DNA of 64,000 nucleotides. Origin: an uncultured Hyphomicrobiales bacterium. GTDB lineage: Bacteria; Bacteroidota; Ignavibacteria; Kapaibacteriales; UBA2268. Numbering within the stretch: position 1 is the stretch's first letter; each line of letters starts with the position of its first letter. The position numbers and the translations under genes were made by a program. Positions 14,311 to 15,423 of the stretch are shown piece by piece. The notes under the pieces were generated by a model. It was not told the DNA's origin and made no database searches. It saw only the letters and a list, made by a program, of their open reading frames with translations. The DNA lies in contig CAYXFU010000007.1 in the NCBI GenBank assembly GCA_964464375.1, forward strand, positions 43,721-107,720, written 5' to 3'.

Positions 14311-15423
14311 TTATAATTTAGCTAAGCATTGTTTCAAAAGAGCTGCAACATATTTTGGATTATGTGCAAATGAACCTGGGTCTTTTACAACTACTAAATA
14401 GTTAGCTAACAATTTTGCATCTGCTATAGGTAATTCTAATGGTTTTGCTGTTGTTGCAACAACATAATTTGTAGAATCGATCCAGCCTTTTGCCATAAGT
14501 TTTGCCTTTACAGAAGCCATATCAGCAAGAATTTCAGTAACCTTGGTACCTTTATCAGGATTCCAATTTTTATCAACAGAAGTATGGCAATTTGCCGAGA
14601 GACAGCCTGCTGTAGCCTGTGCTGATCTGAGTCCAGTTTCTTCGTTATAAGATGCTGTATTGAATGTATGTCCACCAACTAAAAGACCTAATGGGCTTCT
14701 CATGTGGCATTGGAAACATGCACCATCAATATTCTTGTGTGCCTGGCTTGTAGGAAGGGCTGATCCGTCCAATGAAAATCCACTCTGACCAAGAAGCATA
14801 TTTGACTGACCGCCATAATGTGGTCCCCAACGGAGTGAAGTGATTTTGACAGTAGCTTTTGATTCGTCAATAACTGGGTTAAGAACTCTTGCCTGATGAC
14901 ATCTTGCACAAAGGTTAGCATTTTTCAAATCTACATTGTCTTTGTGTGCGCCATATCTGAAAGAAAATGGAGCAACAGATGTGAATTTCCAGTCTGTGCT
15001 GTCATAAGCTGTATGGACTTTGTGGCATGTTCTGCAACCGATTGTTGATGGATTAGCAAAACCATTTGTGACAGTAGTGTCAGCACCTGTAACTGCTGTT
15101 TCTAGAAAACCTTCTGAAGTATGGCATGCTGCGCAACCGCTTCTGTTGGCATCCATGAATGCTTCGCCTTCGCCGTGTGTTGATAGAGCATATTCATTTG
15201 CTCTGGATACTAATGCTGAACCTGCATTGTGACATGCGCCACATGTAGCGTTTCCATCTTTTCCATCTTTTCCATCTTTACCGGCTCCACCGACTAATCC
15301 GTCTTTACCTGCGGGACCTTCGCAAGACATGATAAAAGTTGCAAATAACAGAATAGCTGCTAATGCTAATGATTGTAATTTGAATGTGCTTTTCATTAAG
15401 AACCTCATAAATTGTTTAAACAA
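14311..15423 (-). CDS. Multiheme c lipoprotein (5 CxxCH plus 1 CX4CH) with collagen-like linker
   Basis: Lipobox IMSC, 8 G-X-Y triplets, CGACH, CAACH, CRTCH, CARCH, CFQCH, CLSANCH, C-terminal DPGSFAHNPKY; likely ATG 15396 after GAGGT. Confidence 0.85.
   Translation of the reverse strand: MFKQFMRFLMKSTFKLQSLALAAILLFATFIMSCEGPAGKDGLVGGAGKDGKDGKDGNATCGACHNAGSALVSRANEYALSTHGEGEAFMDANRSGCAACHTSEGFLETAVTGADTTVTNGFANPSTIGCRTCHKVHTAYDSTDWKFTSVAPFSFRYGAHKDNVDLKNANLCARCHQARVLNPVIDESKATVKITSLRWGPHYGGQSNMLLGQSGFSLDGSALPTSQAHKNIDGACFQCHMRSPLGLLVGGHTFNTASYNEETGLRSAQATAGCLSANCHTSVDKNWNPDKGTKVTEILADMASVKAKLMAKGWIDSTNYVVATTAKPLELPIADAKLLANYLVVVKDPGSFAHNPKYVAALLKQCLAKL
15247..15318 (-). repeat. Collagen-like G-X-Y coding repeat, including a 9-bp GGAAAAGAT tandem unit
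   Basis: GPA GKD GLV GGA GKD GKD GKD GNA. Confidence 0.8.

Follow-up and report, generated by a model that had tools for sequence, protein, structure and literature searches.

We describe a minus-strand gene in a 64,000-nucleotide stretch of contig CAYXFU010000007.1 (hereafter the window), from an uncultured bacterium of the Kapaibacteriales, which encodes a predicted lipid-anchored cytochrome with six c-type heme sites, here called the hexaheme protein. This protein probably helps electrons to move across the cell envelope. The more specific reading we prefer, to which we give about an even chance, is that it stands at the outer-membrane end of a conduit for extracellular electron transfer, most likely exposed at the surface, and that the single heme of the adjoining porin makes the trans-membrane step of this conduit. 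The protein is unusual in combining six hemes with a collagen-like lipid tether and a porin partner that has one heme. We found no description of its family in the searchable literature.

Comparison of the single hexaheme sequence with the PDB returned noise only, and Pfam and NCBIfam scans gave only generic multiheme matches and a marginal match to an MtrC domain. Searched with the family profile, the PDB yielded OcwA (6i5b) as the best match (E = 9e-12, profile positions 67-350 on chain residues 258-496), followed by OmhA (6qvm, 6e-7), NrfA (3e-7 to 8e-6) and the octaheme nitrite reductases, these together ranging from 3e-7 to 1e-4. The AlphaFold2 model is of moderate confidence (pLDDT 74.5, pTM 0.70), its low-confidence parts being the signal peptide, the stalk (tether pLDDT < 50) and the first-heme region. 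With this model Foldseek found 6i5b as the sole significant match (E = 1.5e-4, probability 1.0), at a TM-score of 0.43 that is normalised over a query with ~60 disordered N-terminal residues, and NrfA and the octaheme reductases rank next at E ~0.3. A nine-heme relative within the family (P0065) matches OcwA and OmhA directly. Near the C-terminus, an S-x-G-x-H-N-P motif aligns with helices of OcwA, OmhA and NrfA and lies against SNGVHNY in OcwA and SVGFHNP in NrfA; its H354 and N355 are at least 99% conserved (all conservation figures for the family refer to an alignment of 138 homologues). On the profile, the predicted fold and this C-terminal His-Asn helix bundle, we place the hexaheme protein in the NrfA/OcwA superfamily. 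OcwA, one of the folds that a first-pass annotation of the window had proposed for a structure search, is thus the closest solved relative by both profile and fold, with NrfA next. The same annotation had likened the C-terminal motif to that of OmcB-type and other surface cytochromes; for OmcB we find no support, and we read the motif as belonging to the NrfA/OcwA helices. Searches of Pfam, NCBIfam and the PDB brought up no family of the OmcB type, and no direct comparison with OmcB was made.

The arrangement of heme sites agrees with this placement. In the profile alignment, sites 2-6 of the hexaheme protein fall on OcwA hemes 5-9, which superimpose on NrfA hemes 1-5 (PMC6703420), and the sites therefore correspond to NrfA hemes 1-5. 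The WGPHYGGQ loop aligns with V-H-H-P-H of OcwA, the loop whose His-His pair covers the open-coordination heme 5, and H202 with the His or Tyr at position 203 aligns with the HH380/381 pocket, whose H380 and H381 are conserved (PMC9250108). Two hemes of OcwA, 2 and 5, have five ligands and a pair of histidines over the distal side, and its heme 9 is His/Met (PMC6703420). After the invariant H202 the family has His in 70 of 138 members and Tyr in 66, the window protein having Tyr. H229 aligns with the NrfA histidine seven residues before the fourth heme motif, a position at which OcwA has Lys, and H252 and H354 align with histidines of both proteins. The conserved non-motif histidines number six, as do the hemes. 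Five of the hemes are accordingly predicted from the alignment to be bis-His, and heme 2 to have an OcwA/NrfA-like distal pocket with H202/Y203, possibly with open coordination. We regard the protein as a pruned member of the superfamily, consisting of an NrfA-like five-heme module, a three-helix tail and one extra N-terminal heme; a count of six is not found among the members tabulated in PMC9250108, which have 4, 5, 8, 9 or 11 hemes.

Kinship with NrfA brings up the idea that the hexaheme protein is a catalytic oxidoreductase of the NrfA/octaheme type, acting on nitrite, hydroxylamine, NO or a sulfur oxyanion, with the porin only letting the substrate in and the NrfH-like and cytochrome b fusions of the same cluster serving as quinol dehydrogenase. 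The superfamily fold with its C-terminal helices, the invariant His at the NrfA/OcwA distal-pocket position with His or Tyr beside it, the NrfH-like domain within the cluster and the NrfA label that NCBI annotation gives to one homologue all speak in its favour, and OcwA itself slowly reduces nitrite and hydroxylamine (PMC6703420). However, OcwA turns over nitrite only about once per minute, and possession of such a pocket therefore does not by itself make a protein an enzyme (PMC6703420). The CxxCK motif is absent, the NCBIfam NrfA and NrfB models score far below cut-off, and the matched NrfA entries lack a tethered lipid anchor; moreover, the invariant covalent-heme motif of the porin would be needless in a pure substrate channel, and the gene order mirrors that of a porin-cytochrome conduit. 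We consider the catalytic explanation improbable.

The family to which the hexaheme protein belongs is large. A single-sequence search retrieved 67 homologous protein clusters and a profile search at least 1,433 at E <= 1e-20, and tblastn verified as relatives 512 of 599 pattern-matched stretches of GTDB species genomes. The lipobox Cys (kept in 137/138 homologues), the six heme motifs and H83, H137, H202, H229, H252 and H354 are at least 99% conserved, far beyond what chance would give. The first-pass annotation had raised the question of five versus six hemes, the sixth depending on the CX4CH motif CLSANCH. Among relatives this alignment column counts 43 CX2CH and 22 CX4CH, and because ordinary CxxCH thus stands there in about two-thirds of them, we take CLSANCH to be a genuine sixth heme site; the alignment favours six. 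Public databases name the family members 'hypothetical protein', the one homologue mentioned above carrying its automatic NrfA label, and the Pfam NrfA family (PF02335) is precomputed on many homologues. Among the matches listed there is no cultured host.

Read as an open reading frame of the window, the gene runs from a TTG at 15423 over 370 amino acids (the numbering used here) to a stop codon at 14311-14313. Public gene calls begin at ATG 15396, giving 361 amino acids and a database protein, P0001, that is identical, and this ATG is likely the true start. From there the N-terminus reads MKSTFKLQSLALAAILLFATFIMS before the lipid cysteine (Cys34), which is a typical lipoprotein signal with a K-rich n-region, a hydrophobic core and the lipobox IMSC; with this lipobox and the invariant +1 Cys the protein fits bacterial lipoproteins, and lipidation is predicted. 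The tether that follows consists of the consecutive triplets GPA GKD GLV GGA GKD GKD GKD GNA, the sequence PGSFAHNPKY occupies residues 349-358, and the protein ends in LAKL. All the motifs picked out by the first-pass annotation (the lipobox Cys, eight triplets, five CxxCH, CLSANCH, WGPHYGGQ and PGSFAHNPKY) are present at the positions it gave, and its description of a multiheme lipoprotein is sustained.

The hexaheme gene is transcribed together with the porin gene. The sequence turns up in metagenomes from lakes and other freshwater as well as in four runs of metatranscriptome data. In the latter, RNA contigs spanning 12005-15440 (depth 44) and 12179-15369 (depth 92) take in the genes of the hexaheme protein, the porin, the Rieske protein and the first cytochrome c. 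The contigs end at 11980-12179, and the rest of the cluster and the flanking genes have an RNA depth of 0-8. The hexaheme gene is the first gene of a unit with the porin, the Rieske lipoprotein and the small cytochrome c, and it is highly expressed in lake water. On the 3' side of its stop codon lies a hairpin (14254-14283; -22.1 kcal/mol, z = -5.2), which RNA contigs cross into the porin gene in three of the four metatranscriptomes (X1, X6, X7); in run X11 the depth is ~100 upstream of the hairpin and ~11 downstream, and in another run it drops from 59 to 14 within the porin gene. Because the contigs cross into the porin gene, the hexaheme gene is not a separate transcription unit and the hairpin is at most a partial terminator. 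The first-pass annotation had credited the gene with its own terminator: the hairpin is real, whereas independent termination does not hold. A promoter scan found sigma-70-like sites no commoner than in shuffled sequence, and as the scan was not designed for the host phylum it was not used. A second hairpin, at 11950-11979, is perfect, has T-tracts on both strands and lies between two paralogous cytochrome c genes. It separates an outer module of the cluster, which is strongly expressed, from an inner-membrane module with weak expression.

Gene order tells a similar story. We surveyed 80 GTDB loci, of which 8 were too short to judge, leaving 72 informative ones. In 54 of these the hexaheme gene is followed by one heme and an outer-membrane barrel: a fused heme-barrel directly downstream in 24 loci of Ignavibacteria and Kapabacteria, and a small monoheme lipoprotein and then a DUF5777 barrel in 30 loci of Bacteroidales. 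Both arrangements continue with a cytochrome c, a multiheme cytochrome and a cytochrome b. The DUF5777 barrel was considered as a split version of the fused heme-barrel, and hhalign found no relation between the two, which we treat as analogous rather than homologous. Because the two barrels are not detectably homologous, their association with the hexaheme protein is functional and not inherited as a block. The link to the adjoining heme-porin that the first-pass annotation had proposed is therefore borne out, by conserved gene order as well as by co-transcription.

The AlphaFold2 model of the partner porin has 16 strands, and its Foldseek matches are 16-strand porins. High among them stand OprO (4rjx) and OprP (2o4v), the latter being the reported template of Cyc2 (PMC8406198). 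The porin's C35-H39 CxxCH is invariant, and a CxxCH stands near the N-terminus in 180 of 183 full-length members of the barrel family, which has 611 representatives at E <= 1e-3, the matches listed being the best 150 of these. With its signal peptide, single N-terminal CxxCH, 16-strand porin and 410 amino acids (the lower limit for Cyc2 being 365), the porin has the architecture of Cyc2, and it shares with Cyc2 the P-x-[F/Y] upstream of the heme motif, the same five-residue spacing and an OprP-like barrel (PMC8406198). The published Cyc2 signature has AXPXFAR[Q/K][T/Y] placed five residues before CXXCH and PXL four residues after it (PMC8406198), whereas the window porin reads S-R-P-Q-Y-S-I-L-Q, five residues, CSNCH and then ENIQGGG, and R[Q/K][T/Y] and PxL are absent from its family. 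Strict Cyc2 membership was rejected, P.F[AS]R[QK] occurring in 0/180 family members. Canonical Cyc2 is not described with an adjoining multiheme lipoprotein in the Cyc2 literature cited here. The porin is thus Cyc2-like in architecture and fails the published Cyc2 motif.

With such a porin as partner, the hexaheme protein might alternatively be tethered at the periplasmic side of the outer membrane (or at the inner membrane) and act as a relay: the porin, acting within its pore, would oxidise Fe(II) in solution or humics in their reduced form, and the hexaheme protein would hand the electrons on by way of the Rieske protein and cytochrome c to a terminal oxidase, with reverse electron flow as the task of the cytochrome b fusions. 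This arrangement seems to us possible, though well short of probable. The Cyc2 architecture of the porin (PMC8406198) is in line with it, as is the finding that only the hexaheme-porin-Rieske-cytochrome c unit is abundant in RNA, which matches the high cyc2 expression in iron oxidisers (PMC7029218); the tether of ~24 residues would suit a periplasmic swinging arm, and the residues after the lipid Cys match the surface-export signal incompletely (PMC5080379). It is this incomplete match, together with the low expression of the quinol-linked genes, that keeps the relay alive. On the other hand, the nearest characterised relatives, OcwA and OmhA, are at the surface (PMC6703420, PMC9250108), the strict PxFAR[Q/K][T/Y] and PxL motifs are missing from the porin family, the hosts are Ignavibacteria and Bacteroidales, not known as iron oxidisers, an Fnr-type regulator in Bacteroidales loci suggests anaerobic respiration, and one locus encodes a heme protein with a type IX secretion system (T9SS) sorting domain.

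The signal mentioned above, C-X-K-(D/E)2-X, was defined for surface export in Bacteroidetes, namely in Capnocytophaga, Bacteroides and Flavobacterium (PMC5080379). From the lipid Cys the window protein reads C-E-G-P-A-G-K-D, and its Bacteroidales relatives C-T-K-E-G-P, with K at +3 and one acidic residue. Another observation concerns the C-terminal end. Compared with its nearest relative, from an Ignavibacteria genome (locus L009), the hexaheme protein is 81% identical over residues 1-270 and 42% over the C-terminal 90, while the proteins of neighbouring genes are 81-90% identical; DNA identity is 51-56% exactly over 14315-14560 (~85 codons) and 80-95% on either side. Within this island the window protein departs from the family at two positions that are at least 97% conserved, S350 being Gly and G352 Phe. 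The island would fit an exposed, fast-evolving or recombining face, such islands being common on exposed surfaces; recombination or diversifying selection may be its cause.

The length of the tether varies among relatives: most family members have a G-X-Y run, of 0-13 triplets, some have none, and the run is always preceded by C-EGP or C-TKEGP. Because the number of triplets varies in this way, a spacer fits the tether better than an obligatory triple helix does. One could imagine trimers joined through the collagen-like segment, each with 18 hemes, that form a fibre or adhesin-like structure on the surface and serve mainly to attach the cell to minerals. The eight triplets are dominated by GKD, and in streptococci the helices of collagen-like proteins are stabilised by triplets rich in GKD; trimers also occur in the superfamily, for example in HAO. 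Eight triplets are short, however, the repeat is absent in some members, Pfam Collagen stays below its threshold, and OcwA is a dimer (PMC6703420); we find the trimeric fibre very hard to credit. With the streptococcal Scl proteins the tether shares an uninterrupted, GKD-rich G-X-Y run, and it differs from collagen-like proteins in having eight triplets only, variable or absent in relatives, and no known trimerisation domain. Membership in the collagen domain families was rejected (Pfam Collagen 14 bits against 27.2; NCBIfam SclB 12.9 against 325).

Comparison with named systems brings out what the hexaheme protein shares with each. OcwA of Thermincola potens, a Gram-positive bacterium, is a characterised nine-heme cell-surface terminal reductase that reduces iron (PMC6703420), and OcwA and OmhA of Carboxydothermus ferrireducens are both surface proteins (PMC6703420, PMC9250108). 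Common to them and the hexaheme protein are the order of heme motifs over OcwA hemes 5-9, the C-terminal helix motif S-x-G-x-H-N and the loop that aligns with the H-H pair over the NrfA-type heme, about half of the hexaheme family having HH and the window protein HY. They differ in having nine or eleven hemes against six, and OcwA's c554-like N-terminal module and beta-sheet domain are absent from the hexaheme protein. The last heme of OcwA uses Met, whereas the hexaheme protein has the conserved NrfA-type distal His H229 (PMC6703420). The hexaheme protein is in addition a lipoprotein with a Gly-X-Y tether in a two-membrane host, paired with a heme-porin, in contrast to the cell wall or S-layer with which OcwA and OmhA are paired. 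Identity with OcwA proper was rejected on the six heme motifs against nine and on the missing four-heme N-terminal module with its second open-coordination heme, the alignment beginning at OcwA residue 258. With NrfA and the octaheme reductases the protein has in common the five-heme C-terminal module, three helices and the aligned distal positions H229, H252 and H354, and it differs from them by the absence of CxxCK, one extra N-terminal heme, the lipid anchor and other operon partners; NrfA proper was rejected for want of CxxCK, the NCBIfam Nrf models giving at most 19 bits against cut-offs of 167-184. Membership in the MtrC/OmcA family, judged by homology to the pentaheme domains II and IV, was likewise rejected, Pfam PF22113 reaching 33.5 bits (cut-off 30) over residues 58-108 only; MtrC structures had E > 1 in the profile search and were not among the Foldseek matches. 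What the system does share with MtrCAB of Shewanella is its logic and gene order, a lipoprotein multiheme cytochrome, a heme carrier and a barrel linked to quinol dehydrogenases, the Shewanella operon reportedly having the order mtrC-mtrA-mtrB. MtrCAB has 26 strands and a decaheme where the present system has 16 strands and one heme, and a ten-heme MtrC instead of six hemes, and homology between the two systems is not detectable.

In the conduit we prefer, quinol would be oxidised by the inner-membrane cytochrome b and NrfH-like fusions, the 13-heme cytochrome would take electrons from these, and soluble cytochrome c and the Rieske protein would come next. The single heme within the porin would then carry the electrons across the outer membrane to the hexaheme protein, which would deliver them to extracellular Fe(III) minerals or humic quinones; reverse flow along the same wire, from Fe(II) or reduced humics, is perhaps also possible. 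The Gly-X-Y tether of ~24 residues from the lipidated Cys would give the heme domain reach and mobility. What the data show are the motifs, the homology, the fold class, the gene linkage, co-transcription and high expression in lake water; we infer how the hemes are occupied and ligated, on which membrane and which face of it the protein sits, that it touches the porin and which way electrons flow.

Several considerations weigh against this conduit, or at least against parts of it. In 18 of the 72 informative loci, from Gemmatimonadota, Marinimicrobia and other groups, the cytochrome occurs without either barrel. Behind the lipid Cys, the positions that make up the export signal hold just one acidic residue, and the rule for that signal is not defined for Ignavibacteria. 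The NrfA/OcwA superfamily also holds periplasmic enzymes such as NrfA, and a wire that has to cross a membrane with no more than the one heme of the porin is a thin one. Where the hexaheme gene is abundant in RNA, the quinol-linked genes show hardly any expression, which an inward (oxidative) flow or another electron source fits at least equally well, contig depth being a rough measure of expression. Lastly, the structural model is of moderate confidence and holds no hemes, and the predicted ligation takes a particular assignment of NrfA histidines to hemes as given.

Coordinates of the hexaheme gene, its sequence features and the remaining cluster are collected in the table. The cluster genes from 4706 to 11843, which follow the abundant unit and include two unusual fusions, are syntenic in Ignavibacteria and Kapabacteria and have an RNA depth of 0-5.

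Table. Features of the hexaheme gene and of the cytochrome cluster in the window (residues in 370-amino-acid numbering)
Feature	Position	Strand	Basis or remark
Hexaheme lipoprotein coding sequence	14311..15396	-	open reading frame, identity with P0001, RNA contig depth 44-100
Predicted lipoprotein signal peptide, lipobox I-M-S-C	15322..15396	-	direct sequence reading
Collagen-like tether, eight G-X-Y triplets, GKD-rich	15247..15318	-	residues 36-59
Heme domain, six c-type heme sites	14584..15243	-	motif reading and alignment
CxxCH sites	15229-15243, 15121-15135, 15022-15036, 14896-14910, 14704-14718	-	residues 61, 97, 130, 172, 236
CX4CH site CLSANCH	14584-14604	-	residues 274-280
WGPHYGGQ loop	14806..14829	-	residues 199-206
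C-terminal helical region	14314..14553	-	DSSP on model: helices 293-311, 333-346, 356-369
D-x-S-x-G-x-H-N-P-x-Y motif, here DPGSFAHNPKY	14350-14379	-	within C-terminal helical region
Leaky terminator-like hairpin and U-tract 3' of hexaheme stop	14245..14283	-	hairpin 14254-14283, U-tract 14245-14253
Fused monoheme cytochrome-porin, 410 amino acids	12946..14178	-	signal peptide, RPQYSILQ-x5-CSNCH, beta-barrel
Rieske-type [2Fe-2S] lipoprotein candidate, Tat signal	12410..12955	-	C-S-H...C-P-R-H, lipobox LIVGC; weak Rieske and TAT matches
Class-I monoheme cytochrome c	12022..12360	-	final gene of abundant transcript
Strong 12-bp hairpin terminator	11950..11979	-	abundant transcript ends here
Second class-I monoheme cytochrome c	11475-11843	-	paralogue of first
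13-heme cytochrome, 509 amino acids	9777-11306	-	cluster member
Cytochrome b561 and NrfH-like multiheme fusion, 737 amino acids	7567-9780	-	PhsC-like N-terminal b561, 177 bits NCBIfam
19-heme cytochrome and cytochrome b fusion, 948 amino acids	4706-7552	-	19 CxxCH, cytochrome b561 domain

The candidate Rieske lipoprotein has orthologues that match Pfam Rieske, and it is syntenic in ~20 loci. Its sequence combines a twin-arginine (Tat) signal with the lipobox LIVGC, followed by Q-D-E, an acidic stretch nearer the Bacteroidetes surface-export signal than the hexaheme N-terminus is; the last 10 bases of the porin gene lie within its longest open reading frame. Among the Bacteroidales loci, L006, L033, L035 and L089 have a Crp/Fnr regulator upstream, beside the hexaheme gene, in some with an N-terminal Cys cluster, and L006 and L089 have the cytochrome c maturation genes ResB and CcsA downstream. 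In L006 (9521-10380) the DUF5777 barrel is split into open reading frames of 142 and 144 amino acids, for which a frameshift or an assembly error is possible. The Bacteroidota-like locus L035 encodes at 9128-9916 a 262-residue monoheme protein with a weak Reeler-like region and a C-terminal T9SS sorting domain, which by its sequence would be a secreted or surface-attached heme protein.

In the window the cytochrome cluster is bracketed by genes resembling the Bat aerotolerance operon (1855-3647 and 15705-18250), with BatA/VWA and a TPR protein on one side; across the cluster and on the opposite strand to it lie genes for BatD and a TPR-SH3 protein. A PGA_cap gene (3616-4665) goes with the cluster. 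Relatives carry the cluster in other neighbourhoods, and the GC profile of the window shows no compositional island. At 27457-30324 and 36765-38555 the window encodes a subtilase and a CAP/fn3 protein, both with T9SS sorting domains; the organism therefore has type IX secretion, in agreement with an Ignavibacteria/Bacteroidota origin.

What has been characterised of extracellular electron transfer comes from a few model systems: Mtr in Shewanella, Omc and Ext in Geobacter, Cyc2 and Mto among iron oxidisers, and among Firmicutes OcwA and OmhA. We know of no characterised conduit in the Fibrobacterota-Chlorobiota-Bacteroidota (FCB) superphylum, although its members abound in digesters, in sediments and in lakes without oxygen. 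For a humic lake, genomes of Ignavibacteriaceae and Bacteroidetes have been reported, without detail, to hold Cyc2-like genes and multiheme cytochromes of the outer surface (PMC6344600). The hexaheme family, large and unnamed in public annotation, is a candidate conduit for this superphylum. It also offers a six-heme intermediate for the 'pruning and grafting' view of the evolution of NrfA, the octaheme reductases and OcwA, and a concrete test case for the question of whether one heme in a porin is enough to supply a surface partner with many. A bolder version of the conduit, which we think unlikely, has the hexaheme protein docked on the outer face of the porin as a minimal three-part wire through the outer membrane, widespread in the FCB group, with Ignavibacteria, Kapabacteria, Bacteroidales and perhaps Gemmatimonadota as its carriers. 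If that were true, the stalk would set the reach or the oligomeric state of the heme domain, the hypervariable C-terminal helices would be its exposed face, and a Cyc2-type conduit, thought to be limited to dissolved iron, would be extended to solid minerals and humic substances; a large part of the Bacteroidota of anoxic freshwater and sediments would then be electroactive by means of a conduit unrelated to Mtr or Omc.

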